From: Jimgerdemannia flammicorona
Lineage: Eukaryota
DNA: 47,804 bases
Assembly (NCBI GenBank): GCA_003990765.1
Contig: RBNJ01000041.1
Location: forward strand, 1 to 47,804
Direction of reading: 5' to 3'
In this document: positions 6,580-41,147 of the stretch, piece by piece
How the letters are laid out: each line of letters starts with the position of its first letter
Position numbering within the stretch: the stretch's first letter is position 1
Program-made: the position numbers and the translations under genes
The notes under the pieces: model-generated
What the model was told of the DNA's origin: nothing
Seen by the model: the letters and a program-made list of their open reading frames with translations, nothing else
The model's database searches: none

Positions 6580-6591
6580 ATTTGTATATGT

Positions 6592-7058: not shown

Positions 7059-7061
7059 ACT

Positions 7062-11161: not shown

Positions 11162-12346
11162 GGAGCTCTACTATAGAATTATCACATACCTGGGATAGCG
11201 AAAGATACCCCAACATCTAGAAGAATGGACACAAATGATTATCAACAGGACATGGAAACAATTTGAAACTGATAGAGAAACACTGAAGAAAGGAAAACTA
11301 CTGGTCATACCAGAACACAAGAAGGAGCAAGTGATGAAATCAGTATATGAACTTGACCATCTAGGAGGAACAAATACATATGACAAGGCAAGAAGAACAA
11401 TATGGTAGCCAGGGATGGAGGAAGATATCAGACAATTTGCCAAGACATGCGACAAATGCCAGAAACAGAAACAAGACCAATGGAATCAAGCCCCAGAATC
11501 AGCACACATAGAACCAGTACCATTTGCCCATATAGCAATGAATGTAATTGGCCCTCTACCCTTGATCCTGACTGGTAACCGATACATCATTGTCATGTAG
11601 ACCTTTTTACGAAGTGGATAGAAGCAGGACTCCTCAAGGAAGTCAATGTACAGTCAATCACCAATTTCTTCTACAAGGAAATCATCTGCCAGTTCAAGAC
11701 CCCAACACAAGTAACTATAGATAGAGGAACAGAATTTGTAAACCAGCTCTTTGAGGTTCTCTACAAGAAGTACAAGATCCAGCACATTCAGACCACAGCC
11801 TATCACTCCCAAGGAAACAGACAAGTAGAAAGGACCAACAAAACCCTCAAGAATGTTATCGCCAAGATCTGTGATAACTACGAAAATGGGAATCACTATC
11901 TGCCAATAGCATTATCTGCTCTCTGAGATATCTGATCACAAAGTACTCACTTTACCCCTTGAGAAATGCTGTTTGGAGAAGAATGTTCTCAAGGAACCCT
12001 ATCATCCAATGGAGATGCTGTATGGAAACATGTGGACATGGAAATACAGAGACTATATCAAATCAGGAAGAAGGCTGAGGATTACATAACCAAGGTGCAG
12101 ACACTACAATGGAGGAATGCGGAAAAGACCCACAAGTCCTTGGAGATTATCAAGATAGGAGACAAGGTCCTAGTGTATCAGAATATGGTAGAAGCTTCAT
12201 GGTCACAAAAACTGGAGCCCAAGTGGGAAGGACCTTACCTTGTGCAAGATATAAAAGGGACCACCTTTTGGCTATGAAAACCCTCAGGCACAATAATCCC
12301 CACTACTATTCACCGAAACCGACTCAAGAAATATCATGGCCAGTAA
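11154..12346 (+). pseudogene. int: ORF2 of A: integrase (zinc finger, rve core, GPY/F) in its own frame
   Basis: The ATG overlaps the RNase H stop (CATGAATAA). Motifs: HLGG...TCDKCQK, TDRG-like IDRGTEF, TAYHSQGNRQVER, KLEPKWEGPY. Frameshift ~11597. Confidence 0.93.
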
Positions 12347-12797
12347 CAAAAGTACTGTGATGGCACTCAAGATCACTAGTGCTGCCCAAAGAGCCATCGA
12401 AAGACAATGGCACACCACCGAGCCTCCGACCATAGAGGCATACTATGAGGATATTCAGAGTATTGTGCAGACTCATCTCTCCCAGATCTCGCACTTTAGA
12501 GCCTATCAATATTGGACAGAATTCCAAGAGTACTTCAAGCTTGGACAGGTACTCAATCAGGATCCAGCAAAGACCAAGGAGGACTGGATTGCCGAGTGTC
12601 AACTCTCCCACTCACAGATCACTATTGTCAAAAGGATCCACAAGTTATTCCAAGAAGATGAACCAGCAATAGACCACCTGAGAGGAGTAACCCCTACTGA
12701 CTTCGAGAAAGTAAGAAGACATCATTGGGAAACAGTCATGCAGCAAATTGCACAGTACAAGACTATACAGACAGTTGAAGCCTGGGAGTTTGAATAG
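12336..12797 (+). CDS. ORF3 of A: intact 153-aa accessory protein of unknown function
   Basis: The ATG overlaps the integrase end and the ORF stops before the PPT. It has no stops, and its domain is shared with the LTR ORFs of B and C. Confidence 0.8.
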   Translation: MASNKSTVMALKITSAAQRAIERQWHTTEPPTIEAYYEDIQSIVQTHLSQISHFRAYQYWTEFQEYFKLGQVLNQDPAKTKEDWIAECQLSHSQITIVKRIHKLFQEDEPAIDHLRGVTPTDFEKVRRHHWETVMQQIAQYKTIQTVEAWEFE

Positions 12798-12834
12798 ATG
12801 CCCCAGGGACAAGACCATCTATTCAGGAGGAAGT

Positions 12835-13301
12835 TATGATGGTATAGCCAAATTTAGAAGAAGGAAATAGGGAATAGACACTTGATCGCACCCAGTCCCA
12901 AAGTAGTATAGCCTTATAGTTAGCAGTCTTCGATTTTGACATTGTCTAAATTCTTAGACATTATCCAAATTGAACACCCCGATTTAGTATAGCATTTCGA
13001 CATTGTCTAAATTTCTAGACATTGTCTAAATGACTCATAACTTAGCTGCGTAACTCAGTAGCCATCTCATAGCTAGCAAACTTATATAAATAACCCAGTA
13101 TCTTCGAGTGAATAAACCTCAGATCGAAATAGTTCAAAGCAAAGAGATAGCAAAGAAACTAATAAGCCTGCAGGCAGATATACTTTGAACTCAACCACCC
13201 TCCCCTACAACTTCAAGAGACTCTGTGAGAGTCAGAACAGTCAAGTTTTCAAGATACAGAAATCCGAGGTACTTTCAAGAGTAAGCGTCCACTATGTTAC
13301 A
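12835..13301 (+). repeat. 3' LTR of element A
   Basis: Direct repeat of 6592-7058, preceded by the PPT at 12825-12834. Confidence 0.97.
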
Positions 13302-14029
13302 ATGTTCAGGAGTTGGGGTTGTTTGTTTGGTTTGTTTTGATTCTCTGTTTTGATGTATCTCAGTACTTAGTATATATGCATTTGATCCTGATTGATAAGA
13401 TTCTGTTTATATAAATCTTGTGTTCTGTGACTTCATATTAACTCAGCTTTGTGTGCTGTGACTTTGGTTTAACTCAGCTTTATGATCTTACAGATGATTT
13501 CCAGATTTATTCAGAGGTTATATATAATTTCAGTGGCTTTGTTTAGAGGGTGACATGTGATTTCAGTGGCTTAGAGGTTGTGTGCTTACAACTCTCCCCT
13601 TCTTAGCTTTCAATGTCCTCATTAGGGCCTTCTAGTTTTGTTCTAGTATTATTATACTATTTGGATAGTCAAAAGTCTGATAAAGTCTATTTTTTCAGAA
13701 AGTAGTATACTTGTAGTATAGTTGTCTAATATGTTGGATTCACACATTAAAGGGTCATATATTCAATGCCATGTACCAGAAGTGATTCTGATGTCATTTA
13801 CTGCTGGAGAATTTCCTCTAAGAAATCTTCTTAAATGTCTATGCCTCATTTCCCACCAGTAGTATAGAGAGAATAGGCTGGCTTTCAGTTTTCCTGTTTT
13901 TCTAGAGGGTTGGTATTTTATCTTGGTTTGCTGAGTTCTTGATTTTATTTGTGATAATTATAATATTCTGAAGGGTAATATATAGTATGTACTGATAGAT
14001 ACAGAAGTGTTCAGGTTTTAGTTATTTAA

Positions 14030-16422
14030 GAAATTATATTCCTGAACTAAGTCTGTGGCATTTTGGAGATTAGTCTTGAGTTCCCATATTACATCATGGA
14101 TTGGATAACCTTTCCATTTGATGAGGTACTCAGGATAGTTCTTGTGGCTATATTTGTTGAGGATTTGTTCAACTTTATATTCTTCTTTGTCATTAATAAT
14201 GATAGGTGCAGGTGGTTCTGTAATTCGGTTTGGGAATAACTTGTCATCATTTTCATTATATTACTTGAGATGTTGGACATTGAATCTTAATGGTATCTGG
14301 TAGCACCAATTTGTAGGAGGTTGGAGAAACTTATATGATAACTTCAAATAGTCTGATAAATTTATTATTTAGCTTTATAGATAGTCTGTACTTGAGGTTA
14401 TCAACTTGGTATCATTGGATATCTAGTAGAACCTTTTCTCTGATATCAAAAGTTTCTTCTTAATAGTGTTGATTGACATACTATGACTGTTGTTCTTGAG
14501 CTTGTGATAAATTCTCAATTGTGATCTGGCTTAGATTGTGGATTCAGAGTAGGAATTCTTCAACAGCTTCAACTGTAGAGAGTTCATCAGTGGTTCGCAT
14601 AAGTGTTAGAGGGGTGTTTGGGTTTTGTCCTATATTGGTAAAGAATGGGGTCATTCTAAGATAGGCTTGCTTACTGTTATTATAGGTAAACTCGACTGTA
14701 GTGAGGTATTTATGCCAATTATCTTATCTATAGGAAATATAGTTCCTTAGTATTTGTTTCAGAGTTCAGTTCATTATTTCAGTTTGGCTATCAGTTTTGA
14801 GGTGAAAGGCTATGGATAGTGCAAGTTTCATTCCAAGGTATATATGAAGGACTTTCCAAAAATAACTGGTAAATTTCAGATCTCAGTTACTAATAATTAT
14901 CTTAGAAAGACTATGATAGTAGAAGATGTTGTCAAACAAGAGTATGGCTATATCTGGTACTATTGCAGTAGTAGTAGTTGATACAAAGTGGGCTTATTTA
15001 CTGAGATAGTTTATAAAGACAACAATTATATCTTTCCCATTCTTGGTTTGGGATAGTTGTATAATAAAGTTCATAGAAATTTATTCCCAATTAGTAGATG
15101 GTACTGAGATAGGGTAGAGTAAGTCAGGTTTTGCTAGTATTGAGGACTTGTTATATTGGCAGATATTATAGGAAGTGATATAGGTCTTTAGCTGATCTGT
15201 CATATAGGGCCAATAGAAGTTTTGGGAAATAACTTTATAGCATTTATCAAATCCTAAATATCTGGCTATAGGGATATTATGATATTTGAATAGAATAGTC
15301 CTTCAAAGGTTTTGGTTGTTTGGAACATACAATCTGTCCTTATAGTAGATAACATTGTCCTTTAGTTAGTATCAATTGTACTAGGTATACTTGTCAGTAT
15401 CATCACTGCTCAGGATTTCTCAGAGTACTTGAGCTTCCTTATTATCAGCATATACTACAATAATTTGTTTCATGATAGAGTTAGTAACTAAGGTGAGAAT
15501 TTGGATAACTTCTTCAATTGGTGGTCTGGAGTTTGCATCAGCAATAATATTTTCCTTACTAGGGTGATACTGAGTTTCATAGTCAAAGTTGGTGAGGACT
15601 TTTATCCATCTGGCTTGCTTCCAGAAAAGAGTAGCCTGGGTCTTGATATTGACTAGTAATTTGTAATCAGTCAATATGGTGAAGTGTACTTCTTCTAGAT
15701 ATAGTCACCATTTGATCAGAATATCTACAATAGCTAGTATTTCCTTCTCATAGGTTGTATAGTTAATTTCAGTATTATTGAACTTATAAGAATGATAGGC
15801 CACAGGGTGTCCTTCTTATATGAGTACTGCTCCAAGAGCTAGATTAGAGACATCAGTAGTGACTTTATATGGTAGGGCAGAATTTGCTGCTTGAAGTACT
15901 GAAGTAGTTATCAAGACATCTTTCAGTACTTGAAAGGCTGTATCTTGTTTGGGTCCCTAATTTATAAGATTGTTGAAGTCTTTCTCTTATTTTATGATCC
16001 AGAACTGTTCTTCTTTCTTACTATGCTTGGTCATTTGGATAATGATAGTAGTGATCTTGGTAAAGTTAGCAACAAATTGTCTATAATAGTTTGCTAATCC
16101 CAGGAATAACTGGAGGTCTTTCAGCTTCTTTAGTCTGGCCCAATCCTTAATTGCAGAGATTTTGCTAGGATCTACTTTGATTCTATTTAGCATGACAATA
16201 TGTCAAAGGAATTGAATTTCTTTCAGGAAAAATTTATATTTGCTGAGTTTTGCAAAGAGTCTGTTTTCTTAGAGTTTCAGTAGTACTAGCTCAAGGTATT
16301 CAAGATGTTTCTCCAGGGTTTTGCTGAAGACTAGAATGTCATCAATATAGACAACAATAAATTTGTCTAGATATAGATGCAGGATAGTATTTATCAGAGT
16401 CTGGAAGGTTGCAGGAGCATTA
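14030..16422 (-). pseudogene. pol: pol of family C: RT (part), RNase H, integrase, chromodomain; heavily degraded
   Basis: [48 protein letters not shown]; chromodomain EEYKVEQIL...EYLIKWKGYPIHDVIWE...NLQNA at ~14035-14190. Confidence 0.92.
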
Positions 16423-17369
16423 GCCCTTAGTCTGTAATTTGCAGACAAATTTGCCTACAAAAAATTATAATTTTTGTAAATTTATATCTTTATTAATATA
16501 AAAAATATTTATCTGAAAAATTAAAATAATATTAAAAATATATAATATTATATATCATAATTTTTTCAAACTGTTATCTAATTTATTCAAATTTATATTT
16601 ATTTTTTAACTTTAGTTCTTAGTTTGTAATATAGGTAAATTTGTCTGCAAAAATTAAATATTTTATAATATTATTAATAATAAATATATTTACTCCTAAT
16701 TATTAAATAATAATAACAAGATATATCAGCTTACAAATTATCAAACATTTCCTAATTTAATAATAGGATATTATTTTATTTTTATTTTTAAAGCTGCAAG
16801 CTACCATAAGCTGCAAGCCCCAAGCCCCAAGCCCCAAGCTGTAAGCTGCAAGCTACTTCAAAATTTGAAATTAGATATAACAGACATATTTGCTTATATC
16901 TTAACAAAAAGACATACAATCTTGAAGTTATTAAGCTTGTTAGAATGCTCTGAATTATAGTATTCCAATAAGCCTATATATATTAAGATTGGATACCTTT
17001 TTGCTGAAATATAAGTAAAAATGTCTGATATATCAAATTGTAAATTTTGATGATTCAGCATTACCAACATACTTAGTTCTAGCATTACCAAGAACTATAA
17101 ATGCAATCACAGAGTGGATCTAAACCCTGTCCCTTTTGGGTGAAGAGAAGAGTACTCTTTTAGAAATTTATAGATTCTTTTTCTGGTGAAATTTTGATAT
17201 ATATGCTCTAATTTTACTTCTGAATTTGCTGAAATACATGATATTACTATTGCTTTTTTTAAGGATACAGTTAAAAATTCCCTGGTCACAGAAATAATTG
17301 ACCATAATATCATCAAAATATTCATAAGAATACAGTTCAAAATATATACTACTTTTCAATATAACAGCT

Positions 17370-19020
17370 TTGAAAGGGGGGGGGTTTTTTTTTCAAAAAG
17401 GGAGGAGCCTCATTACTTTACCTTGCCTCATCTTGCCACTCTTTCTTCTTACCATTCATTCTATATACTTCGTCTCGATACTTATTTCAATACACTTTAT
17501 TCTAATATACTGTTCATTTCATTTCAATATGCTATCTTGTCTTACTGCTTATTCCAACACTGTCCTTAACACACTCTGCCATAACAGTCTTGTTTTCTTT
17601 TTTTTTGAAAGGGGGGAGTCTTATTGCTTTACCTCACCTTGTCTTACTGCTCATTTCAATACTTCTCTCCTTGCTATTCATTCCATACACTTCATCTCCA
17701 TGCTCATTCCAACACACTGTTCATTTCATTTCATTCTAATATACTTTTATTCCAATATACTGTTCATTTCATTCCAATGTGTAGCCTTGCCTTGCTGCTT
17801 ATTCTAGCACCTTATCTTACCACACTGCTTATTTCAATACTGCCTTTGCTGCAACAGCCTTGCTCTAATATTTCAAAAGGTTTGTTTTTTTTGAAGAAGA
17901 GAGAGCCTCATTGCTCTATCTTGCCTCATCTTACCACTCATTCCAATACTTCTCCTTGTCATTCATTCTATGTGCTTCATCTTGGCACTTATTTCAATAT
18001 GCTTTCATTTCAATGTACTGTTCATTTCATTCCAACATGTCACCTTATCTTGCTGCTTATTCCAGTATCTCATCTTGCCACACTGCTTATTCTAACACTG
18101 CTCTCAATGCACCCTACCATGACAGCCTTGGAAAAGTTTGTTTTTTTTTTTAAAAAAAGGGGAGAACCTCATTGTGCTCTACCTCACCTTGTCTTGCTAC
18201 TCATTCTAATGCTTCTCTTCTTGCTATTCATTCTATGCACTTCATCTCTATGCTCATTCTAACATATCATTTATTTCATTTTATTTCAATGTGCAGCTTT
18301 GCCTTGCTACTTATTCCAGCACCTTGTCTTACTATACTGCTTATTCCAACATTACACTCACTACAACAGCCATGCTCTGACATTTCAAAAGATTTGTTTT
18401 TTTTGAAGAGAGAGCCTCATTACTCTATCTCACCTCATCTTACCACTTATTTCAATACTTCTCCTTGTCATTCATTCTATGTACTTCATCTTGGTACTCA
18501 TTCCAATATATTATTCATTTCATTCCAATGTACCACCTTGCCTTGCCACTTATTTCAGCACTTTATCTTGTCACACTGCTTATCCTCACTGTACTTTTTA
18601 ATGCACCCTACTGTGATAGCCTTGGAAAAGTTTATTTTTTTTGGAAGAGAGGGGAGTCTCATTGCTCTATCTTGTCTCATCTTACTGCTCATTCCAATGT
18701 ACCATTCATTTCATTCCAACATACTGTTAATTTTATACCTTATCTCACCACTTATTTCAGCATCTCATCTTACCATATTGCACTATCCTTGCTATACTTT
18801 TCAATGTGCCCTACCATGACAGCCTTGCTTTAACATTTGAAAGATTCATTTTTTTTGAAAAGAGGGGAGCCTTATTACTCTACCTCACCTTGTCTTGCTG
18901 CTCATTCCAACACTTCTCCTTGCTGTTCATTTTATATACTTCATTTTGTCACTTATTCCACCTTATCATTTATTTCATTCCAATGTGCTATCTTGTCTTG
19001 CTGCTCATTTCAATACAATC
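17370..19020. repeat. diverged satellite, ~7 units of ~215-290 bp with alternating long/short units; related inverted copy at ~20997-21180
   Basis: Recurrent TTTTT(G)AAAAGAGGGGAGCCTCATTGCTCTA at ~17390, 17605, 17890, 18150, 18400, 18640 and 18852; internal CATTCCAA subrepeats. Confidence 0.85.
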
Positions 19021-19487
19021 TGCTTCAGCCTATAAGTGTGTCTACTTCACCTCTTCTGCTCTATTCACCTCCACATCTGTCATCTCTGAACCCACCACTT
19101 CCACACCCACCATCTCTGCACCTTCTATGTGAGGAGAGACTCTGACAAATATGTTGTCTCTTGAAACAATAAAAAATAAATGAAAGAAATCGAAATTCAT
19201 TTCTACCAATTATTAAGTTGAAAGTGGATTCTATAATTACAGGTCAAGATATTGGAAATGGTGTACAAATGGTCTTGATAAATAATATATATATATTATA
19301 CTATCATTTCAAAATATCTCATTATAATAAAGATGAGGTTTTTTTAAACAACTTTGGTTTAAACAATATCATACATAATGGAAAGATAATTAAAAAGGAT
19401 TAATTATATAAAGTTTTTAATAGTGACAAATTTGGAATTTCAAATCTTTTTTTTTTATAAAATCAATCTGAAAAATAATATAAATTT

Positions 19488-19690
19488 AAAAGAGTGGAGC
19501 AGTTTGGAAATTATAAAGGAATAAAATATATATAAAAAGATTGATACTGAATATCATTCTGCTACTGGAGTATAACTGCATTAAATATTTTGAAAGAGTA
19601 GCATAGTTTGGAAATTATAAAGGAATAAAATATATAAAAAGATGATGCTGAACATTATTCTGTCACTGGAGTATAGCTATATTAAATAAT
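19488..19690. repeat. ~100-bp tandem duplication
   Basis: AAAAGAGT..AGTTTGGAAATTATAAAGGAATAAAATATAT...CTGGAGTATA occurs twice. Confidence 0.85.
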
Positions 19691-19697
19691 ATTCAAG

Positions 19698-19781
19698 TGG
19701 TACACATACTGAGAATTGAACTGCCACCATACTCTGGCTGCATTATTTGATTCTCCATGCTAACAACTATACCACAATATC
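19698..19781 (-). pseudogene. degenerate tRNA-like sequence
   Basis: Minus strand: A-box-like TGGTATAGTTGTTAGCA, B-box-like GTTCAATTC, ending ACCA; stems pair poorly. Confidence 0.3.
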
Positions 19782-20214
19782 AATATAAGAAATTAGTTGT
19801 AACAGTATTATAAATAGTATGCTGTCTACACCTAGGGAATTTTTAAAAAGAAAGATTGTTCTTCTTGACTAGTAGATTTCCAAGTGTCCTAAATATATTG
19901 CATAGTGGCACTTTACAGAAAGCTCATTCTTCCAGTTATATATAGTACTGGATAGCTATTTTCACTACCCAAGGATGAGAGAGTACAGTATATACAAAAA
20001 TTTATATAATGTATATACCTATTCTGAGGGAGTCTCTATTATAAAATATATAGTTTGGGACTTATGGTAGAAATATCAAATATATATATTCTTTATTAAA
20101 ATAAAATATTTTCTTATAAGGGCTAGTGTATATTGAGAGAGAGCATAGAATAAATATGTAATGAATGCAAGATAAAGAGAGAGGATAGAATGAATGCAGG
20201 CTAAAGAGAAGGAC

Positions 20215-20950
20215 TCTCTGCCAAAGTCTGAAGCTCTCTCTGCTAAAGTCTTCTCTGCTGAAGCCCCTGCTGCCAAAGCCCCCTCTGCTGAAGCCCCCTC
20301 TGCCAAAGCCCCCTCTGCTGAAACCCCCTCTGCCAAAGCCCCTTCTGCCAAAGTCCCCTCTGCTGAAGCCCCTGCTGCCAAAGCCTCTGCTACTGAAGCC
20401 CCTGCTGCTAAAGCCCTCTCTGCTGAAGCCCCCTCTACTGAAGCCCCCTCTGCTGAAGCCCCCTCTGCCAAAGTACCCTCTGGCAAAGTTCCCTCTGCTA
20501 AAGTTCCCTTTGCCAAAGTAGAGTCCCCTCTGCCAAAGTTCTCTCTGCCGAAGTTCCCTCTACTAAAGTTCTCTCTACTAAAGTCTCCTCTGCTAAATTC
20601 CCCTCTGCCAAATTCTCCTCTGCCAAGTCTCCTCTACTGAAGTCCTCTCTACTGAAGTCTCCTCTACCAAAGTCTCCTCTGCTGAAATCTCTCTACTGAA
20701 GTTCTCTTTATCAAAGTTCTCTTTGCTGAAGTAGAGTCTCTGCCAAATTTCCCTCTACTAAAGTTCTCTCTGCCAAAGTTCTCTCTACTAAAGTCTTCTC
20801 TGCCAAATTCCCTTCTGCTGAATTCTCCTCTACCAAAGTCCCCTCTACTGAAGTTCTCTTTGCCAAAATGGAGTCCCCTCTGCCAAAGTCCCCTCTGCTG
20901 AAGTCCTCTCTGCCAAAGTTTCTTTCTGCTAAAGTTTCCTCTGCTGAAGT
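20215..20950. repeat. 15-bp minisatellite (CTCTGCYRAAGYCCC), ~45-50 units
   Basis: Directly visible; phase slips at GAGTCCC/GAGTCTC interruptions. Confidence 0.95.
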
Positions 20951-21624
20951 ATTTACTGTCAAAGTCCCCACCATCTATGAACATGCTGGCTGACTAGGGT
21001 TGTATTGGAATAAGTAGCAAGATGAGATGCATTAGAATGAGTGGTGAGGTGAGATATATTGGAAGGAGCAGCAAGGTAAAGTGTATTGGAATGAGTAGTG
21101 AGATAAGATACATTGGAATAAGTAGTAAGACAAGGTATCTGAAAAGAACAATGAGGTAAGGCTCTCCTCCCTCTCAAAAGGACAATAAGCTGGTATAGAG
21201 AACTAGTATAATTAATCAATATGATGAACTGAATGAAACTCACCCTGTTTTTTTTCTTCTCTGAGTCTGAACATACTGACTGACTGGAGGTAAGGGTATT
21301 AAATATATCAACAAGACAAACCACTGGATGATATACATAATGGCAAACCATAACTATAGCCTTGCTGCATAACAATAGTCTCTCTTACCAAACAATGAGC
21401 AATAATAAGACAGGAAAATAAAAAGCAGATAAATGGTATGAATATGGTAGATAGCCTTTAGTAAGAAGAGAGTAAATGATAAGTAATAAAAGGAGTAATA
21501 ATAAGAGAGGAAAACAGTGAGCAGATGAATGGTAAACCATAATCATAACTATAGCCTCTATATAACTATAGTCTCACTGCTATCTTGTACTTATGACTGA
21601 AATTTTACCTTAAATTCAAAAGAA

Positions 21625-21702
21625 GTACTAGTGGTACATTGGATAGTACTATTCTCTGTACCTGAAAGGGACAGGGTTCAAATCTGCTCTATGGTTATTT
21701 TT
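21625..21702 (+). pseudogene. degenerate tRNA-like / Pol III promoter-like sequence
   Basis: TAGTGGTACATTGGATAG (A box-like), GGGTTCAAATC (B box-like), followed by a T-run. Confidence 0.3.
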
Positions 21703-29759: not shown

Positions 29760-30406
29760 CTAAGATGAATATCTCATATGGATCATGCATGATCGCATTA
29801 CCCGGCAGCTGGGTACAGCAGCTAGGTCATTGTGAATTGGTTTTGGTCGGTATGCGAAGCACCTCTATAATTCTATGTTGTTTTTAAGATATCAATTTTC
29901 CTCATCGAAACTAACGTTGTCATCAACAAGGTCTGCTACGTCGCGATAATTTTTCGTTGGAAGCCGCTATATAAATATCGCGTTAGGTGACAAAATATGC
30001 ATTGATGGGTGTATGATCAGCAAACAACGATTTTCAAAAACTCAGTTGATTACGTAGTCCTTCCCTTCGGAAGAATTTCAATACAAAGCCTTTTCACAAA
30101 CTGAACATAGACAAGAATTATATTTTGTGATATGCCATATGACTGTTCCGTAGGACATTAGATCAGATCGGTATCTCTCGGATATGCATGCTCTTCTTTT
30201 TGCCTGCATTCGTCCCAAATTTCGTCAAATAGTTCATACCACTCATCTTGTGCCCTCTTATCATCATGGTACCATTGAATGATCTTGCGATATGTATCAA
30301 CATAGTTGGTTTCGTTGAATGCTAGGTTCTTGTTGAAGCATACATAGAACTACGAATTCGTTAGTTGAACTCATTTAATCATAATTATTGATCGAAAAAT
30401 ATATAT

Positions 30407-31918
30407 TGTAATGGTGACCCCAGAATGATGACATCAGCACAGGAGACAGCCTTTCCTTATAAGCCACCAGATCGGAGCACAAGAAGATCATACGGCATAC
30501 GAGATGAGCAATGATGACCAACTGTGAGTTATTGTGACCACAGCATGAGTATCCTGAAGAATATAAAAGAAGGATCAAGGAACCACAGTAGCAGCAACCA
30601 ACAAGAACCACCAATCCCAAAATAGCTCAAAGACTTACCACAAATAAAATGCCTGCTGCTCACCAAACCTTAAGGTCAAGGAATTACCAAGATATCTCAG
30701 TCAAGGAAAGATATTCCAAGATATCAGAAGAGCCATGAGGACCTACTCAAGAAGGACTCCTAGCATCAACCTGGGTACTGCAGACCCTTATCACTTTATC
30801 CTCTACTGCTGCGAAATGGAAACAAGGATCACCATTGCTACTGAATGCCTCTAAATGTGGCAGGAGTACAAAATAGGAAATCTCCTCTGCTGGGAGTTCC
30901 CACAGGCTAGCACCCAAGAGCTACAAGATGCCACTCTGATGGATATATGCAAAACAAGAATAGCTAGGAAGATCCATCAGATCTTCAGGCATGCACCATG
31001 GTCAATCTCTAACTTGGAGTATGTTAGAGTCTCAGATTTCAGAGATCTATCATCCTGCTATATCAATGTACTAGAAGCCAGGGTGGCTACAGAAGCCCAG
31101 TCCACTATCACCCTTAATAACGAAGAAGTAGAAGACTTCTGGCACCCTATCCTTCAGGACAACCCAGATCATTTCCTGCAAGGATTGATCTCAGTATTCC
31201 AAGGCCCAAGCATCCAGGTTAGATCTCCCCAAGACCCCACATTTGTTTCTTATTTTGTGGAAGAGAACCTTATAGATTGGAGAGCTCCAGATCTTGTTCC
31301 CGATTTTCCCACCACAGCTAAACATGATGACGTCATCGGCGATGATGTCATCCCGCACAACATACCTAAAGTACACAAAGTATACAAAATGTGTGACAAT
31401 GAAGTATGCAAGATGTATGGCCTGCATGACAAATTCGCAGATCTCATCTCCTTCAGTGATGATGATGATGAGGATGAAGTCCCTATGGTTCTGAACTTTC
31501 TGCTCTAAGTTCTTTATTATACTGGATAATGCCAGCACCGGCATTCTGAGGTGATACAAAATTATTCCAGTACTAGTATTTTGATATGACACTAAATAAT
31601 GCCAGCACTGGAACTTAGTAGTTTTAGTTATTGGAATTTATATTTAGCTTTATATCTTAGCAACCATTGAATTATATTTTGTATAAATACCTCTCTTATT
31701 TCCTCTGAAATAAAGTCAGTTCCGGTTTCACTTATACACACTTTCTTGCAAGCAATCTAAGAGATAACAAGACAGTTAAAGATAAGAAGTTTGAGGACTA
31801 TAAGATCTTGGGAAGGCACTCCAATAAGAACTTACTTATAACAACTTAAGTTAGTCTAAGAGATACATCTTGAAAAGAATCTGGCATATTTGAAGGACTC
31901 AGCGACCACTATGTAACA
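30407..31918 (+). repeat. 5' LTR of B (1512 bp)
   Basis: TGTAA...TGTAACA; direct repeat of 39635-41147. Confidence 0.97.
30649..31508 (+). pseudogene. LTR-encoded accessory ORF, 5'-LTR copy (1-nt deletion plus a stop)
   Basis: Copy of 39877-40737. Confidence 0.8.
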
Positions 31919-34132
31919 ACTTGGTGTTCATTGGCTGGTGATTCAAGACGAATCCCTCACTTTCAAGCTGAAAAATAAACAACCCCCACAACAACTACCC
32001 TGACTACAAGAGTCACCCCTACAAGAATTCAAGACAAGATGGAAATGCGCCCCTCCATATTCTATGGATATACTACTGAAGAGTCAATCCTGACCTTTAT
32101 TGAAGACATTGAACAATTTGCCGCTGTACAAGCCCTTGGTGTAGATACTCAATTGGCTCTTCTACCAGTCAGCCTCAGAGGACCTGCCAGAGACAAGTTC
32201 AATGCAGCCACCATTGCTGATGCTGGTGCAGTCAAACTTGCCAACATGAAGGCCTTCCTTAGAATAATATATTATACTGAAAAGATCAAGCAAGCTCTCA
32301 AGGATCAACTCAATACTATCTTCCAGGGACTTAGTGAAGATCCCAACTCATTCTATACCCGAATCTGCCACCAGATTATCTTGGCTGGCTATGATGACTG
32401 CCTCAAGGAATAAATAGCAGATTCAATCTTCCTCAAAGGAGTTTACCCTGAAATTGTCCTAGTAATTCGGTCTACTCCAGCTGCACTGACCCTTGATCAG
32501 AAAGTGGTCTTTGCACAGAGATATTGGACAGCCAGATACCCTGCTGAACACTCAATGGAGAAAATAACTGGTATCAAGATGGAGCCATCAAAGCCAACTA
32601 GTATCTTACCTGCCACAGTTGTAAACAGACAACCAATCCCACCTACTCTCAAGACAGCCAAAGCTGACCCAGTGGAAGAACTTGCCAAGCAGTTCGCTGA
32701 GATGACTGCACACCTTGGTGATGTTGTTAGAGAAGTCTGAAGTGCCAACAGGAGACCAGTGCAGAGATTTGCAGCTGCTACAGAAGAATACAATATCACA
32801 TGCTTTAGATGTAGAGAAGAAGGCCACTATGCAAAGAGTTGCATGACCAAAATAAGATGCAAAGTCCAACCAAGCAATGCTAGCAGAACCAGAGAACAAA
32901 CTAATGCAGTAGTCATTGAGGAGATTGGTGATACTGATGATGAAGAATACTATGAGGAGCTCGAATTCTACTCTGCTACTGAAGGTACCAGAACCCGGTC
33001 CAAGCCCTATGATAGGAAGAGCAACAGCAAGCCAGTTGGAAGATCAAAAAAGACTCCAATTGTCACTATTCAAAGCAAGACCCAATACGAGAAGATTGAT
33101 CAAGACATGGAGTTAGACGAAGCTGCCTGCCAAATTATTGAAGGCACTACTCCAGTCTCAGGAGAAAGCGAGAGCAAGAAGGAACAGAAGCTGTGCAAGA
33201 CCAAGATCCACCAGTATGACATCTACAAGGACCTCAAGAAACAGAAGATCAATGCCACTTTTAGGCAGCTAGCTGAAGTCCCTACCTTCAGACAGCAGTT
33301 GAGAGTAGGACTTGTAACTACTGTCAAGAATCAAGAGTACAAGATTGTAGAAGCTCACAATGTACAAGAAGAATCTGAGAACTCAGTTGAAGAATCTGAA
33401 GATCAGCGCAAGACATCAGCCTATACCCCCTGCCAGATCGAAGACTGTATCTTTGATGCCATCATTGATACTGGTGCTGGAGAATGTCTCATGAGCAAGA
33501 AGGCAATTGACCACCTAGGTTGGGACATTGAAGAGTCCACCAAGATGGTCTATGTTACAGCAGACAGTACATGAGCTACCCCCCTTGGCAAAATCCGAGA
33601 AGTCCTCATCAAGATAGGAGGAGCTACTATCCCAGTAGACATGATTGTTACAAGTGCCACCAACTATGACATCCTCATTGGTAACCAATGGCTTTACAAG
33701 GCCAAGGCCATCATTGACCTCAATGCCCAGAAGATGCAGATCAACTACAGAGGGAGAAAGGTACAAGTTTCTATCAATGTCCACAAAGGAGTCCTGCCAG
33801 ATATGGAGGAAGAAGATGAAGAAGACACAGAGGTCTTCATGCACTTGGTGAACAAGAATAAGAACAAGATACCCAAGCTCACAGATGAGCAGTAGTATAA
33901 CAAGATTATCGATGGGTATGCCCCTCAAGGAAGATGCCCCCATGGTACTAGAATGTACTACTCTGAACACCTGAATAACTGCTGGTCCTGTATCAGCGAA
34001 GTCAGGAAAATCTGCTAATGGAAATACGAGCAAGAAGCTGCCGAAGCAAAAGGGAAAGCTGAAGAAGATGACCAGCCCCCAGAGCTTCAAGCTGACAGTG
34101 ATGATGAGGAGGAACAAGAATCAGACATCACC

Positions 34133-34543
34133 CTCAAGGTCAAGAAGTTTCACCCTGAAGTCAAGATCCCAGAATACAAGACTGAAGGAGCCATAGGAAT
34201 GGACCTTGCCAGCATCCAAGATGCTACTCTCAAACCACAGACCACCACCCTACTTGGTACTGAAATTGGAGTCAAGTTGCCAGAAAACCATGCTGGAATT
34301 ATCAAGACCAGGAGCAGTCTGGTCAAAAGTGAAATCTCAGTTGAAGGAGGAGTAATTGACCCTGATTACACTGGTGAGATTTTTCTCATAGTCAGAAATC
34401 ACAATCACACCACCCCCTTCAAAGTCAAGAAGCATGACAGGATTGGCCAGATGCTGATCCACGAAATCAAGAAGCCCAAGATTGTAGAGGCCACTGAACT
34501 TATCAAGACCAAGAGAGGAGAACAAGGCTTTGGATCTACTGGA
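34133..34543 (+). CDS. dut: dUTPase domain within pol of B
   Basis: GMDL, KTRSSL, GGVIDPDYTGEI, RIGQML, RGEQGFGSTG. Confidence 0.95.
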
Positions 34544-36010
34544 AGAGGAGCCTATGCTGCCACCAAGATTACTGAACTTGAGCATAAGAAAAACAAGGAC
34601 CAGAATAAGCACACATATACCATTGGAGAAAACTTTCCCCTGGAGGAACAACTTCTCAAGATCCTGCACCAGAACGAAGGAGTACTTGCTACAGACTTTA
34701 GGAATATCCACAATCAGGAACCCAAGTACTACCATGAAGTTGACACTGGTGATACCAAGCCTATCTACCAGAAAGCCAGACCCATACCACCTGCCTACAG
34801 AGAGTGGCTGCAAGCCGAACTCAAGGAAATGGAAGAAGCTGGAATCATCAAGCAAGCTATCAGCCCCTGGGTCTTACTCATTGTCCTTGCCCCAAAGAAA
34901 GGAAGTAAGTCTGGAGAGTTTGCACCAAGACTCTGCATTGACTACAGGAAACTCAATGCCATCACCAAGAAGGATAGATAGCTCTTGCTGAATATTCAAG
35001 AAATCCTTACTATCCTTGGAAGCAAAGCCAAATACTACACCACCTTGGATCTGTTCTCAGGCTTCCATCAGATCGGTCTCACTCAAGATGCCAGTGAGAA
35101 ATCAGCCTTCATTACACCTGATGCCACCTATATCTATCTGTGAATGCCATTTGGAATGTGCAATGTCCCAGTAAGTTTCCAGTGAATGATGAACAGAGTC
35201 TTCAGCAACGAGATTGGAAAATGGCTCTTTGTCTATATTGATGATATGATCATCTTCAGCAACACTGTACGGGAATATGTCAATCACATATAACTAGTCC
35301 TCAAGAGGCTCAAGGAGCATGACCTCTACATCAAGCCCAAGAAATACAAGTTTGCAGCTCAAGAAATCACCTACCTAGGGCACCTCATCAACCAGACTGG
35401 AATCCACACAGACCCCATGAAGATCGAGGCTGTTGCAGCCTATCCAAGACCCAGAATAACCACAGAAGTCCATGCCTTCCTTAGACTGGCCAGCTACTAT
35501 AGAAGATTCATCAAAGAACTCCAACATTGCAGCACCTATCTATGAGCTACTGAAGAAGGAGACCAAATTCGAATGGACCAAGGAGTACCAAGAAACCTTC
35601 AATGAACTCAAGACCAGGTTGACCCAAGCACCCATCCTCAGAAGACCAGACTGGAGCCTAGAATTCATCCTGCAGACAGATATAAGTGCTATAGGACTTG
35701 GAGCAGTCCTAGCTCAGAAGAAAGATGGACATAAATATGTCATCTCCTATGCAAGCTGAGGTACCCGCAGAGCAGAACAGAACTACAAGTCATGCAAGCT
35801 TGAATGCTTAGCGGTAGTTTGGGCAGTAGACAAGTTCTACTACTACCTAGCTAGAAAACACTTCACCATTCAAACAGACCATTCCGCTCTTGCCTGGCTA
35901 TTCCACACTCTGAACCCCAAAGGAATATATGCCAGATGGATCTACAGGCTACAAGAATATGACTGTACTGTCAAGCACTGCCCAGGAAAGACCAACACCA
36001 ATGCTGATGC

Positions 36011-38041
36011 TATAAGAGGGTTGCTTTTTAGGGTAACCGTTACGTAGTTCTGGAAAGGTTTTCTGGATATTCTAGAGGTTCTGGAAGACTGTTTTCTTAA
36101 GGTCAAGATCAACTTCATATGGAGTACATCCTCTACACTTATTGATTCCAAGATTGGGTTGACGTCTTAACCAAAGTCCTTTTTCGGACTAGTTCTGGAT
36201 GTTCAGGATTTTCTGTATTTCAGGAAGTTCAAGAAACTAAGACCAGCTTAGTTGAATTGGTGTATCACTGCAGACAATACCCAATTAGGAAATTTCATGA
36301 TGGGGTTAGAAGTGGGACCTAATAGGGAGCAGATTTACTTAAGAGTGATTTGTGGGTTATGGAATAGGTTTATTTGCTATTCATAATATTGCTATACTAG
36401 GAGTAATTGTGTGAAGAGATATTTGTGGGGAAGTATTCAGAAATGTTCTTGTGTATTTGAGTCTGAGATTCTGAGGTCTGGGAGAGGGGGTATTTATACT
36501 AGTGAGGAGCTATCTGGACTATGCTAGATATGGATATAGCACTAGGTGCTTTGCTGAGTCGGAATGCAGTCACATAGTACAAGTGTGATCTGACATATCA
36601 AGAGATCATCTGACTGCTGAGTCAGTTCACAGTCATGTCATACAAAGCTAATCTAACTATACTATGACTGCTAGGCTATTTATGGGTTTAGGTACTGTCT
36701 GAGTAGTTCTCGATGACATCACTATCAATTGCATCATCTCTGATAAAGTAGTTGTCTAGGAAGAGTGGTTCGTGGATTACTTCTCCTTATTTGCTAAGGT
36801 AGTAATACATTGGGACTTCGTCTCCATCCTACAGGATAGCATCGTCTGTCTCGTAGGCTGGATAAGGTGTTGGTGGGCGAAGGATGGGTGTATTGTCTTC
36901 ACTTTCATCGGATTTACTGTCTGTATACCTTCTATAGGTTACAGCACTATGAGTTGCAGGATTATAGTAAGCTGGCAGCTGTGGTTCATGTCGCTCATAC
37001 TCAGGTAGTGGAGTGGTTGGTTCGATCTCAAGGGTTGTCTGAAGGTACAGGTTGTGTTCTCCAGTCTCTTCATTGTAGTTGAAGTAATTGGGTGTAATGC
37101 GGGTTGGTATTCGTGCCAGTGGTCATTGTCCCAATAAGTCTCGTATGCAGTTATGAACTGTTGTAAGTTCATCGGCAAGATTGGCAGTGTGATCAGGGTT
37201 GGCAGAGATCCTTGGCTAGAGGTCATGTCAGTGTCAGAGGGGTCATTGTCTTCTGCTTCATCTTCATCGAAGTGGATTATATCATAGATGTCCTTCATGG
37301 TATATCCAACTTGGGGCATTTGCAGGATGTGATCATTGGGGTGTGGGAAGGTTCTATCTGTGGTTTCGACATACTCGAGGTACTTGTGGTTGAGTTCTTG
37401 TATCATATCATCGATTTGGCCATAGGACAGGGTAGCAACCATTTCACTGGTAGTAACTTGGAGGTGGGAAATAAAGGTGCTGTACTCATAGAAGAGTTCT
37501 CGATGTTTGCAGGCGATGAGCTTCTGGTGTTGAGATATCTGGATAATGTCTGTATCATAATGGTGTTTGACCATGTCTTCCAGGAGGCGGCCGATCTGGT
37601 AGTAGCTTGAGATTTGTCCAATTCGGTGGGCCTCGCTAAGCATGTTCAGAGCATTCCATTGGGCTTCTATGAAGTAGAGGGGTGCTAGGCTATGGATATT
37701 CATGAGGGGCAGAGGGGGTGTAGCTCAGTTGACAATGGCATTCCAAATGTCAGCACAGATGCGGTTGTAGATCTCAGTGGTCATGTTTGTGTGTTTGAAA
37801 GTTGTAGTTGTTGTTTGTTTTGGTTCTCTGATTTGACGCATCTCGGTACTCAGTATATATGCATTTGGTCCTGATTGGTAAGATTCTGTTTGTGTAATTC
37901 TTGTATTCTGTGACTTCATATTGACTCAGCTTTGTGATCAAGCAGGTGATTTCCAGATTTGTTCAGAGGTCATGTGAGATTTCAGTGGCTTGTTCAGAGG
38001 GTGATGTGTAATTTCGGTGGCTTAGAGGTTGTGCGCTTACA
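36011..38041 (-). mobile_element. solo LTR of family C (2031 bp); 5-bp TSD GATGC/GATGT
   Basis: Inserted in the ADALSR codons of B RNase H. The empty site is visible in the B-like copy near 45085. Confidence 0.95.
36787..37784 (-). pseudogene. family C LTR-encoded accessory ORF (~332 aa ancestral; two stops and a 1-nt deletion)
   Basis: MTTEIYNRICADIWNAIVN*...SYYQIGRLL...LFYEYSTFISHL...DGDEVPMYYYLSK*; frame restored by comparison with 5592-6579. Confidence 0.8.
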
Positions 38042-38090
38042 GATGTACTCTCAAGAATACCCTGAAACATCCCCATCAAGACTATTCAAC

Positions 38091-39296
38091 ATGAATAAGG
38101 AGCTATACTATAGATTAATCAACTACCTTGGGCAGCAGAAGATGCCCAACCACCTCGAACCCTAGACAATCACCATCATCAACCAGACTTGGAAATAGTT
38201 TGAATTAGACAACACTATATTCAGAAAAGGAGAAAAGCTAGTAATACCTGAACACAAGAAGTATCAAGTAATGAAGGAAGTACACAAGCAAGGACACTTA
38301 GGAGGAACCAACATATATAACAAGGCAAGAAGAACCATATGGTGGCCTAAGATGGAAGAAGACCTGTGCCAATTTGTCAAAGGGTGTGACAAGTGCCAAA
38401 AACAGAAACAAGATCAGTAAGACCAGGCACCTGGATTATCAAGAATTGAGCCTATCCCCTTCCACCACATTGCAATGGATATCATTGGACCACTACCAGT
38501 AACACTATCAGGAAACCACTATATTATAGTTATTATAGACCTCTTCACTAAATGGATAGAGGCAGGAGCATTACAAGAAGCCAATGCCCTCTCTATAGCC
38601 AATTTCCTATACTGAGAAATCATCTGCTGCTACAAGACACCAAAGAAAATCACAACAGACCATAGCACAGAATTTGTCAATGGATTCCACGAGATAATAT
38701 ACCAGAAATACAAGATCCAGCACATCAAGACCACTGCATACCACTCTCAAGGAAATGGACAGACAGAAAGAACCAACAAGACTCTCAAGAACATCCTAGC
38801 AAAGATCTCAGAGACATATGAGAATTGGGATAACTATCTCCCAACTACCCTCTCTATTCTATGAGACATATGGTCACAGAATACACATTTTACCCCAAGA
38901 GAGCTGCTCTTCAGAGAAGAAGATTCTAATGGAACCTCAGCTACAAATCTAGACCTAACTTGGAGACGGGTTGATGTGGAAATCCAGAGACTACACCAAA
39001 TCAGGAAGAAGGCTGAAGATTACATCACCAAGTCACAAGCACTGACAAGGAAGAATGCAGAAAAGAATTAAAAGGCCCTAGAACTCATTCGAATTAGAGA
39101 AAAGGTTCTACTGTATTGAAATATGGTAGAAGCCTCATGGTCACGAAAACTGGAGCCCAAATGGAAAGGACCCTTCTATATGCAAGATATCAAGGGAACT
39201 ACCTTCTGGCTTAGAAAAATCTCAGGGACCATACTGCCTACCATGGTACATAGGAACAGACTCAAGAAGTACCACAAACCTAGAAGCAAAACATGA
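38091..39296 (+). pseudogene. int: ORF2 of B: integrase in its own frame
   Basis: CATGAATAA overlap; HLGG..GCDKCQK, TAYHSQGNGQTER, KLEPKWKGPF, VHRNRLKKY. Confidence 0.93.
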
Positions 39297-39634
39297 TGAC
39301 TGCCTGTGAGGTTCTAGTCCACAAATCGTAACAACATGTCCCGTGACCAGCAGGCTATCTGTCTGGACCATTCTCTAAGGGATATGGCACTGGCAACTAC
39401 TCATCCATGAAGACTTTCACAGTCAGAGGAGTTCGAACTGTCAACTGATTGGTCAAGATCAGAATCAGGCCCTTGCTCTATATGAAGGGAGTGACCCTTC
39501 ACCATCATACCAAAATACAAAGAGAAGATACCAGCCCATAAACACCCCTTGCCAGAGGTTATGGGATCAGCAAATTTTTCAGGACTGGAGCAATAAATAA
39601 GGATGCTCAGGAAGATCCTTATTTAGGAGGAAGA

Positions 39635-41147
39635 TGTAACAGTGACCCCAGAATGATGACATCAGTACAGGAGATAGCCTTTCCTTATAAGCCACCAGAT
39701 TGGAGTACAAGAAGATCATACAGCATATGAGATGAGCAATGATGACCAACTGTGAGTCATTGTGACCACAGCATGAGCATCTTGAAGAATATGAAAGAAG
39801 GATCAAGGAACCACAATAGCAGCAACCAACAAGAACCACCAATCCCAAAATAGCTCAAAGACTTACTACAAACAAAATGCCTGCTGCCCATCAAACCTTA
39901 AGGTCAAGGAATCACCAAGATATCTCGGTTGAGGAAAGGATGTTCCAAGACATCAGAAGAGCCATGAGGACCCACTCAAGAAGGACTCCTAGCATTAACC
40001 TGGGTACTGCAGGCCCTTATCACTTTATCTTCTACTGTCACGAAATGGAAACAAGGATCACCATTGCTACTGAATGCCTCCAAATGTGGCAGGAGTATGA
40101 AATAGGAAACCTCCTCTGCCAGGAGTTCCCACAGGCCAGCACCCAAGAGCTACAAGATACCACTCCTATAGATATATATAAAACAAGAACAGCTAGGAAG
40201 ATCTATCAGATCTTCAGGCATACACCATGGTCAATCCCCAACTTGGAGTATGTTAGAGTCTCAGATTTCAGAGACCTATCATCCTGCTGTATCAATGCAC
40301 TAGAAGCCAGGGTGGCTACAGAAGCCCAGTCCACTATCACCCTTAATAGCGAAGAAGTAGAAGACTTCTGGCACCCTATCCTTCAGGACAACCCAAATCA
40401 ATTTCTGCAAGGATTGATCTCAGTATTCCAAGGCCCAAGCATCCAGGTTAGATCTCCCCAAAACCTCACATTTATTTCTTATTTTGTGGAAGAGAACCTT
40501 ATAGACTGGAGAGCTCCAGATCTTGTTCCCGATTTTCCCACCACAGCCAAACATGATGATGTCATCGGTGATGACATCATCCTGTGTGACATACCTGAAG
40601 CACACGAAGTACATGAAATGCGCGACAATGAAGTATACAAGATGCATAGCCTGCATGATGAATTCGCGAATCTCATCTCCTTCAGTAATGATAATGACGA
40701 GGATGAAGCCTCCATGGTCTTGAACTTTCTGCTCTAAGTTCTTTGTTACACTGGATAATGCCAGCACCAGCATTCTGAGGTGATACGAAATTATTCCAGC
40801 ACCAGTATTTTGATGTGACACTAAATAATGCCAGCCCTGGAACTTAGTAGTTTTAGTTATTGGAATTTATATTTAGCTTTATATTTTAGCAACTATTGAA
40901 TTATATTTTATATAAATACCTCTCTTATTTTCTCTGAAATAAAGTCAGTTCCAGTTTCACTTATACACACTTCCTTGCAAGCAATCTAAGAGATAACAAG
41001 ACAGTTAAAGATAAGAAGTTTAAGGACTATAAGACCTTGGGAAGACACTCCAATAAGAACTTGCTTATAACAACTTGAGTTAGTCTAAGAGATACTCCTT
41101 GAAGAGAATCTGGTATATTTGAAGGACTCAGTAACCACTATGTGACA
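39635..41147 (+). repeat. 3' LTR of B (1513 bp)
   Basis: Follows the PPT; TGTAACA...TGTGACA. Confidence 0.97.
39877..40737 (+). CDS. intact 286-aa LTR(U3)-encoded accessory protein of element B
   Basis: Stop-free 861-nt ORF inside the 3' LTR, upstream of the TATA box (~40911); homologous to ORF3 of A and the LTR ORF of C. Confidence 0.82.
   Translation: MPAAHQTLRSRNHQDISVEERMFQDIRRAMRTHSRRTPSINLGTAGPYHFIFYCHEMETRITIATECLQMWQEYEIGNLLCQEFPQASTQELQDTTPIDIYKTRTARKIYQIFRHTPWSIPNLEYVRVSDFRDLSSCCINALEARVATEAQSTITLNSEEVEDFWHPILQDNPNQFLQGLISVFQGPSIQVRSPQNLTFISYFVEENLIDWRAPDLVPDFPTTAKHDDVIGDDIILCDIPEAHEVHEMRDNEVYKMHSLHDEFANLISFSNDNDEDEASMVLNFLL

Follow-up and report, generated by a model that had tools for sequence, protein, structure and literature searches.

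Accessory genes of nested LTR retrotransposons in Jimgerdemannia flammicorona and their probable relation across element lineages

Extra genes in long terminal repeat (LTR) retrotransposons are rare, and the known ones are mostly env-like or enzymatic. A 47,804-nucleotide (nt) stretch of Jimgerdemannia flammicorona DNA (contig RBNJ01000041.1 of assembly GCA_003990765.1, forward strand), referred to here as the window, raises the question of whether three such elements share an accessory gene of another kind and, if so, how they came by it. Self-comparison of the window resolves LTR retrotransposons nested within one another: elements A and B on the plus strand and the C repeat, present three times, on the minus strand. 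Each has an open reading frame (ORF) beyond its pol gene, and an initial annotation of the locus took the three ORFs to encode one homologous domain, exchanged between chromoviral and non-chromoviral lineages. We find a selected gene family with an unusual placement inside the LTR, common to two sister lineages and probably to the chromovirus too. Overall, we put at roughly 60% the probability that these are accessory genes of LTR retrotransposons, those of A and B being homologous but very divergent and that of chromovirus C probably a distant homologue. Less confidence attaches to the cross-lineage claim and to the function than the initial annotation implied.

Position and selection of three 3′ open reading frames

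In element A the ORF, called ORF3 here (protein P0001; 12336..12797, plus strand), encodes 153 amino acids (aa) and is free of stops, as first described. Its frame is +1 to that of pol, and the ATG falls within the last pol codons. The resulting overlap of ~44 nt was read in L001, a metagenome locus with an A-family element, and applies likewise to the window via the common downstream TAG. The polypurine tract AGGAGGAAG follows downstream of ORF3 (12825..12833, plus strand). The same tract stands upstream of the ORF in element B (39625..39633, plus strand); these are the only two exact matches in the window, one in each element, and AGGAGGAAG also precedes the LTR of the A-family element in L001. 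Because the B tract lies upstream of the ORF, the B ORF falls inside the unique 3′ (U3) part of the LTR. This ORF (P0002; 39877..40737, plus strand) encodes 286 aa, is likewise stop-free, and starts 242 nt into the 3′ LTR (39635..41148). A broken copy with a 1-nt deletion and one stop occupies the 5′ LTR (~30648-31508, plus strand). Read directly from the sequence, the 3′ LTR of B also contains a TATA-like TATATAAATA and an AATAAA ~175-200 nt past the ORF stop, and the TATA-like motif may be the B promoter. A 340-nt spacer separates the B pol stop from the polypurine tract, and no A-type ORF3 remnant was found in it, bit scores against the profile hidden Markov model (HMM) being negative.

The C ORF, ~361 codons long in the family, occupies 36694..37784 (minus strand) in copy C2, which has two stops in the frame of the initial annotation and a frameshift near 37095, located by tblastn with the relative P0018. 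The copy in C1 (6579 down to 5496, minus strand) has many stops, and the ORF is frameshifted in both. The starts first given for these copies, 37784 and 6579, are correct and lie on the minus strand, but the frame is wrong past about residue 225. The C ORF begins 257 nt into a ~2-kb LTR. The location thus differs among the elements: the ORF lies between pol and the polypurine tract in A, and within the U3 of the LTR in B and C. All three are nonetheless on the coding strand of their element, downstream of pol and before or in the 3′ LTR, which places them in the positional "ORF3" class; in the order of the genomic RNA each is the last cistron, after pol. Since the B and C ORFs lie in U3, the gene is copied into both LTRs and is retained in solo LTRs such as C2.

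Are these ORFs genes? The A-family element in L001 is 74.6% identical to window positions 8311-12888, with an intact ORF3 of 153 codons and a nearly intact pol. Between window and L001, differences in ORF3 fall 31/27/85 by codon position, and the ratio of non-synonymous to synonymous differences per site (pN/pS) comes to 0.24 in the reading frame; the two alternative frames give 1.19 and 1.38. On the same pair, pol gives 0.245 across protease (PR), reverse transcriptase (RT) and RNase H (RH) (930 codons) and 0.18 across integrase (IN) (366 codons). When only transversions are counted, the distribution by codon position is 14/13/39, and in codons with a single transversion the change is synonymous in 17 cases and non-synonymous in 13, where 125 and 743 such changes, respectively, were possible. 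This persistence of in-frame constraint on transversions favors a functional gene. For the C ORF, the comparison of C1 with C2 yields, from 211 usable codons, a pN/pS of 0.24 in frame and of 0.72 and 1.17 in the other two frames; the differences fall 39/19/71 by codon position. The A and C ORFs are under purifying selection: both ratios are far from 1, and the A signal persists without transitions. Selection has kept the ORF intact, so the gene probably serves the elements.

The accessory ORFs are real genes, and it is barely credible that they are meaningless open frames in decaying repeats. The A and C ratios of 0.24 in frame stand against values of 0.7-1.4 out of frame, the A ratio equals that of pol on the same pair and holds on transversions, and full-length relatives with 57-80% identity exist on other contigs. 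What speaks for meaningless frames is that intactness in the window is not significant. Given 11 stops in the 1311 codons of A pol, the probability of no stop in 153 codons is 0.28; the corresponding value for B, with 15 stops in 1313 codons and an ORF of 286, is 0.038, the other B copy being broken. Although it is true that the A and B ORFs are stop-free while their pol genes are full of stops, this is weak evidence, and intactness as a sign of selection was discarded for that reason. Moreover, the two B LTRs, the sole B DNA pair, carry no coding signal (31/15/31 by codon position), which counts against our reading; of their 1514 sites 119 differ, 114 by transitions. The lack of a coding signal in this pair is what decay after insertion is expected to leave.

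As an observation in its own right, C1 and C2 differ by 116 transitions and 13 transversions, and C1 is the more AT-rich copy. Such transition-heavy divergence suggests a C-to-T process, for example deamination of methylated cytosine or a process like repeat-induced point mutation.

The position of ORF3 in A allows one further account, in which it encodes no separate protein and is a C-terminal extension of Pol reached by +1 frameshifting in the 44-nt overlap. We consider this quite improbable. It is true that in both the window and L001 the end of pol overlaps ORF3, whose frame is +1. However, the homologous ORFs of B and C stand well clear of pol, that of B, which has its own ATG, lying 242 nt into U3, beyond both the 340-nt spacer and the polypurine tract, and for A, 7 of 10 relatives have retained both the ATG and the N-terminus MAN.(R/W)ST.

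Homology of the encoded domain

Relatives of the three proteins were sought in length-restricted searches of protein databases. These returned 10 relatives of A among 12 candidates (62-80% identity), 5 of B among 282 (57-80%) and 1 of C among 50; the A relatives include the seven with the conserved N-terminus. A full HMMER scan of 1.84 billion representatives added P0019 as a further C relative. P0019 matches the N-terminal part of the C2 ORF at 87% and P0018 the C-terminal part at 62%. Four representatives matched C at E ≤0.001, of which P0019 and P0018 only are relatives. For the other two, P0020 (E 2e-7) and P0021 (E 8e-7), the likeness is broken up into 6 and 7 stretches, respectively, of which the best are 38 and 54 residues long. 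In the first case the likeness is traceable: residues ~115-135 of the C ORF (~37380-37440, minus strand) read LSYGQIDDMIQELNHKY, which resembles a unit, LSFDKIADFIEKLNNGY, recurring throughout P0020, a 436-aa tandem-repeat protein, and this produced the E of 2e-7. Either a short helical motif in common or a chance match inflated by the repeats could account for it.

The profile comparison of A with B shows the two ORFs to be homologous at the level of their sequences. Aligned by hhalign, the families match with E 1.8e-5 and a probability of 78% over 100 columns at 23% identity, and they do so in the register first proposed by eye; MAFFT gives the same A-B register. Among 822 ORFs of the window, the A profile has its best non-self match in a B copy (E 0.0091) and the B profile in A ORF3 (E 0.0061), so that the two are reciprocal best matches. 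The shared helical domain spans ~residues 33-126 of A ORF3 (12432..12713, plus strand), as read from the hhalign A-B and A-C comparisons (columns 26-126 and 64-118) and from the merged alignment; it lies at ~39931-40278 in B and at ~37452-37772 (minus strand) in C2. At its N-terminus each of the three proteins has an all-helical domain of ~100-130 aa that falls in no described family.

The motifs on which the proposal of a common domain had been built, YFKLGQVL in A, EYEIGNLL in B and YYQIGRLL in C with the block after them, are present, and both MAFFT and hhalign recover their register. The reconstruction of an ancestral IARK in C also holds: P0019 reads IARKHRELF, and has R at the position of the first stop of C2. 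The pentapeptide DEVPM, said to be common to the tails of B and C, fared otherwise. Its only occurrences are in the 5′-LTR copy of B and, away from the end of the protein, in C1, and it is absent from the relatives P0013, P0014 and P0018; as a shared motif it was set aside, being best read as chance.

For C, the single-family comparisons are faint. By hhalign, C and A align with E 0.013 over 53 columns at 25% identity (probability 3.3%), and C and B with E 0.019 over 103 columns at 22% identity (probability 2.4%), in registers that are consistent with each other. When A and B are merged into one profile, its score against C rises to as much as 27.0 (P 7.6e-4, probability 25%). None of 150 column shuffles reaches this score (null mean 11.9, standard deviation 2.1, maximum 19.8), and reversed sequences score 13.1-13.9. 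Of 41 decoy windows from real proteins, P0021 having served as a decoy, none reaches 24.2-27.0; the highest scores 21.0, in a decoy window that overlaps the B part of the profile, and the next 17.8. In HMMER searches of 823 sequences, where noise begins at E 0.27-0.47, the A+B profile first meets, outside its own family, P0019 (E 0.0044) and then C2 (E 0.044), and the C profile first meets A ORF3 (E 0.0016). In the merged alignment four motifs are collinear, and B and C have two insertions in common relative to A.

Several observations weigh against our reading. The A-B register is not recovered at all by pairwise BLASTP, whose E values are 0.046 for A-C and 0.2 for B-C. On the scales to which the programs themselves are calibrated, the link to C scores weakly, with hhalign probabilities of 2.4-25% and HMMER scores of 9.6-14.2 bits, values that would be lost in a genome-wide search. 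The N-terminal profile of C is shallow, holding three near-identical sequences (effective number of sequences, Neff, 1.2). Between the C-terminal halves of B and C no relation is detectable (E 0.11 over 15 columns, PIL..N..QF). Structural comparison adds little: fold models cover A alone, with a mean predicted local distance difference test (pLDDT) score of ~51, so that superposition of A, B and C is not possible, and the matches of the A model reach Z ≤5.3, where values under ~8 may mean a common arrangement only.

Much of this would follow if only A and B shared the domain and the C LTR ORF were unrelated, its likeness being a matter of chance or of convergence among short amphipathic helices. 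The low probabilities (2.4-3.3% for single families, 25% for the merged profile), the low bit scores, the BLASTP values, the shallow C profile, the unrelated C-terminal halves and the unconserved DEVPM all accord with that account. We nevertheless think it rather unlikely. Merging A with B raises the score, as it would for a true relative; no shuffle or decoy window reaches that score; the matches are reciprocal among the 822-823 ORFs; the four motifs are collinear, with the same two insertions in B and C; and on the element RNA the three ORFs are placed alike. The chromoviral LTR ORF is thus quite probably a distant homologue of the A/B domain, as far as profile comparison can tell. Of the initial claim of a single family, the part concerning A and B is borne out (E 1.8e-5), and the part concerning C stands at P 7.6e-4, a probability of 25% and reciprocal E values of 0.0016 and 0.0044, which is suggestive rather than decisive.

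Exchange between lineages or descent with pol

Whether a shared domain implies exchange depends on how the elements themselves are related. Element anatomy was taken from self-blastn, and pol domains from Pfam searches of 37 stop-to-stop ORFs translated with the standard code. The internal regions of A and B align, 7018-12336 with 31878-39274, at 66-71% nucleotide identity, and share the order PR-dUTPase-RT-RH-IN. In both, dUTPase lies within pol, flanked by PR and RT, as in dUTPase-bearing Ty3/Gypsy elements (Pfam dUTPase E 2.9e-24 in A and 1.4e-28 in B; RT_RNaseH E 2.2e-33 in A), and neither has a Pfam Chromo match in these ORFs. By their pol sequences, A and B are sister dUTPase-bearing Ty3/Gypsy lineages, so that their sharing of a gene is not surprising in itself.

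Element C is of another kind. A degenerate internal region on the minus strand (13591..16454) contains RT, RNase H, integrase and a chromodomain (14021-14260), with Pfam matches to Chromo (E 7.9e-12), Integrase_H2C2 (E 2.2e-12) and RVT_1 (E 3.2e-9). The chromodomain lies downstream of the latter two, beside the polypurine tract AAGAAGGGGAGAG and the C1 LTR. Because the degenerate chromoviral region adjoins C1 via this tract, C is the LTR of a chromovirus, and its assignment as such in the initial annotation is upheld by a chromodomain at the integrase C-terminus in the region abutting C1. The "three different families" of that annotation therefore reduce to two pol lineages, (A, B) and C, and only the C link crosses between them. 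The cross-lineage claim thus hinges on that link, with P ~1e-3.

The distances between the elements and between their domains do not run in parallel. In pol, B is 66-70% identical to the A family, and the A family is 33% (RT-RH) and 21% (IN) identical to C, whereas identity in the domain is about equal in all pairs: 23% for A-B, 25% for A-C and 22% for B-C. A flat domain distance set against unequal pol distances fits module swapping, or very fast divergence that halts where constraint sets a floor. ORF3 evolves at about the pace of pol within the A family (pN 0.19 versus 0.165; 69% aa identity in ORF3). Measured against L001, the pol of B has pN 0.19 and 0.15 and that of the window A copy 0.165 and 0.09. 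The B ORF, however, is 23% identical to A ORF3, is twice as long and has a C-like layout. The LTRs of A and B resemble each other in nucleotides at the terminal 14 nt only, a likeness within the range of shuffles. The jump in the B ORF fits replacement of the 3′ module by recombination, and it also fits a burst of fast evolution.

Vertical descent offers an account without exchange, in which the domain is ancestral, was inherited with pol in the three lineages, and evolved fast to a floor of ~22-25% identity; the B polypurine tract would have shifted upstream, placing an orthologous ORF in U3. This account is possible, although we incline away from it, both as to inheritance and as to the shifted tract. 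It agrees with our preferred reading in all but exchange. A and B do have the same tract, AGGAGGAAG, their ORFs are similarly placed with respect to the 3′ end of the LTR (411 nt and 505 nt past the stop), and LTRs of this group lose nucleotide similarity fast, even between window and L001 (74.6% identity). Set against it is the pace of change within the A family, where ORF3 keeps step with pol, for the pol of B is only slightly farther from L001 than that of A and yet the B ORF is 23% identical and doubled in length. The two insertions that the B ORF shares with C likewise look like a jump rather than a gradual trend. We give even odds to the proposition that the module has been reshuffled between element lineages and not merely inherited with pol. 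The exchange between chromoviral and non-chromoviral lineages that was first proposed is plausible, given the flat domain identity of 22-25%, but is not shown.

Protein features and possible role

None of the three ORFs, nor any of the 17 members of the alignment, matches a Pfam family at or above its curated cut-off, and a PDB profile search with the merged alignment gave a best E of 0.34, which is noise. A Protein Atlas query with P0003 likewise yielded nothing usable, only clusters that were mixed or had no name. A transmembrane segment is absent as well, the highest 19-residue Kyte-Doolittle mean being 0.16-0.97 in the A, B and C proteins. The earlier statement that the proteins contain no named domain and no membrane segment is in agreement with all three results (hydropathy below 1.0 throughout), and the Pfam and PDB profile searches returned no characterized relative. 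An env-like ORF3 of the errantivirus or Athila type was considered and rejected, given the lack of a hydrophobic segment and of any glycoprotein family at the Pfam cut-off.

The AlphaFold models of A are all-helical, with mean pLDDT 51.0 from 11 sequences and 50.6 from 17, and a core at residues 61-110 of pLDDT 64-72. VIA-align matched residues 52-117 of this model mostly to helix-turn-helix (HTH) DNA-binding domains: DeoR with Z 5.3 (47 residues, root-mean-square deviation 1.4), P1 ParB with Z 5.0, and also KorB, VirB, SopB, sigma region 4 and CENP-B. Two of the 17 members touch the Pfam family HTH_Tnp_Mu_2 (E 0.031). In B and C the C-terminal half is very acidic (pI 4.05-4.07; 4.07 in B). 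A nucleic-acid-binding domain joined to an acidic half would be the layout of a transcriptional activator, and the position of the gene recalls that of retroviral regulators. We suggest, very tentatively, that the protein may be a nuclear nucleic-acid-binding regulator with an HTH-like core of three helices and, in B and C, an acidic half resembling an activation domain. For the transactivator or anti-silencing role first proposed, these two features (the core at Z ≤5.3) lend weak architectural support.

A gene lying before the polypurine tract, as in A, is internal, and one lying after it, as in B and C, lies in U3. For the product to be made, a spliced or subgenomic RNA or an internal promoter would be required; in A, re-initiation or frameshifting at the 44-nt overlap of pol and ORF3 would be an alternative. 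Such a regulator might boost its own LTR-driven expression or counter silencing by the host. The boldest form of the proposal, a portable HTH-like regulatory module, in some versions with an acidic activation-like half, that moves between unrelated LTR-retrotransposon lineages (dUTPase-bearing Gypsy and chromovirus) via recombination at the 3′ end of the RNA, is speculative and improbable as matters stand.

The consequences differ with the strength of the claim. Should the protein prove to be a regulator, the elements would supply a factor for their own expression or against silencing, which would bear on how they reach high copy number. If there is truly a portable module in U3, copies of a transactivator or anti-silencing gene would be scattered across the host genome with every LTR, solo LTRs included. 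Even on a cautious reading, annotation pipelines that mask LTRs as non-coding would overlook such genes.

The elements that carry these ORFs form a nest with the following anatomy. Element A has a 5′ LTR of ~470 bp at 6590..7059 that is 93% identical by self-blastn to its 3′ LTR at 12833..13302 (both plus strand). Its internal region, 7060..12380, encodes gag and then PR (8450-8977), dUTPase (8981-9922), RT (9926-10741), RNase H (10745-11158) and integrase (11199 onward). In element B, the 1.5-kb 5′ LTR (30407..31919, plus strand) is 92% identical to the ORF-bearing 3′ LTR, and the internal region (31920..39634, plus strand) encodes a zf-CCHC gag, PR, dUTPase (34019-34978), RT, RNase H and integrase. 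That region is split between RNase H and integrase by C2, a solo LTR of ~2.03 kb (36011..38041, minus strand); homology of B to A picks up again on both sides of it, as seen by self-blastn and by direct reading of the LTR ends. C1, the 3′ LTR of the minus-strand chromovirus, was cut in two by the insertion of A. Its larger part lies at 4817..6585 and its first ~270 nt at 13318..13590, with the polypurine tract AAGAAGGGGAGAG before it (all minus strand). The third copy, C3 (45695..46671, minus strand), is partial and holds only the C-terminal ~100 codons of the ORF.

Further repeats surround these elements. Another B-like pol fragment, running from RNase H to integrase and 86-88% identical to B, lies at 44059-45687 (minus strand); it is free of the C interruption and abuts the partial C3 at 45695. 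Just upstream of C1, the 3′ part of the C LTR recurs in partial, inverted copies (3363-4195 and 4505-4814, plus strand) that form inverted repeats of 230-450 nt with C1, and tblastn matches the last ~47 codons of the C ORF at 3362-3502. A hAT DNA transposon remnant occupies 2350-2945 (plus strand), with a Pfam match to Dimer_Tnp_hAT (E 7.2e-21, 2691-2945) and a weak hAT-like RNase-H match (E 0.0014, 2350-2475). A 15-nt tandem array of ~47 copies, with higher-order periods of 59 and 65 nt, spans 20238-20950 inside frames that are open on both strands and code for proline/serine/leucine/lysine repeats; its Pfam match to Extensin_1 (E 5e-6) is far under the cut-off of that family. The segments 17385-19012 and 42873-43478 are internally repetitive, with self-matches of 64-79% identity, and 24/72-nt tandem units occur at 42881-43177.

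Comparison with known systems

In the literature searched we found no description of the A/B/C protein family. A search for ORFs within the LTRs of retrotransposons gave no match, and one for accessory ORF3s of Gypsy elements, rust fungi included, gave none that describes the A/B/C ORF by title or abstract. Genes within U3 are familiar to us from retroviruses, and we know of none in retrotransposons. The sag gene of mouse mammary tumor virus (MMTV) and the nef gene of human immunodeficiency virus (HIV) are coded in, or overlap, the U3 of the 3′ LTR. Like them, the B and C coding sequences lie in U3, are the 3′-most cistron of the genomic RNA and are duplicated with the LTR. Unlike them, they belong to other hosts and other element clades, and no sequence relation was found. 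Sag, moreover, is a type II membrane glycoprotein, whereas the A, B and C proteins have no hydrophobic segment.

A second comparison is with the transactivators that retroviruses code 3′ of their structural genes, Tas (Bel1) of foamy viruses and Tax of human T-lymphotropic virus (HTLV); Tas combines a DNA-binding part with an acidic activation part. As a working analogy only, the A, B and C products are likewise small element-encoded proteins coded at the 3′ end, and the layout of B and C suggests a Tas-like arrangement; the PDB profile search (best E 0.34) returned no such relative.

Among fungal elements, Gypsy retrotransposons with a dUTPase between PR and RT have been described (PMC2864245; Novikova et al. 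2010), and a figure legend in that report marks an "additional ORF with unknown function"; for plants, extra ORFs of env-like type are noted there in Athila-like elements. The passages in question give neither sequence nor family for the fungal ORF, and elements of the present kind may already be among those that the report lists.

The nearest precedent that we found in print is the sharing of ORF3s among LTR retrotransposons of bdelloid rotifers, where types of ORF3 are common to unrelated retroelements and the authors propose gene sharing among modular elements (PMC5408684; Rodriguez, Kenefick and Arkhipova 2017). The likeness to the present elements lies in an extra ORF downstream of pol, found in dUTPase-carrying lineages too, and in the occurrence of one type of ORF in unrelated lineages. 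There are differences as well. The rotifer ORF3s are recognizable, as env-like fusion glycoproteins, GDSL esterase/lipases or DEDDy exonucleases, unlike those described here; our elements look to be of fungal type, and in two of the three the ORF lies inside the LTR. If the three ORFs are truly homologous, accessory genes of retrotransposons can be shuffled between lineages, in the way proposed for the rotifer elements.

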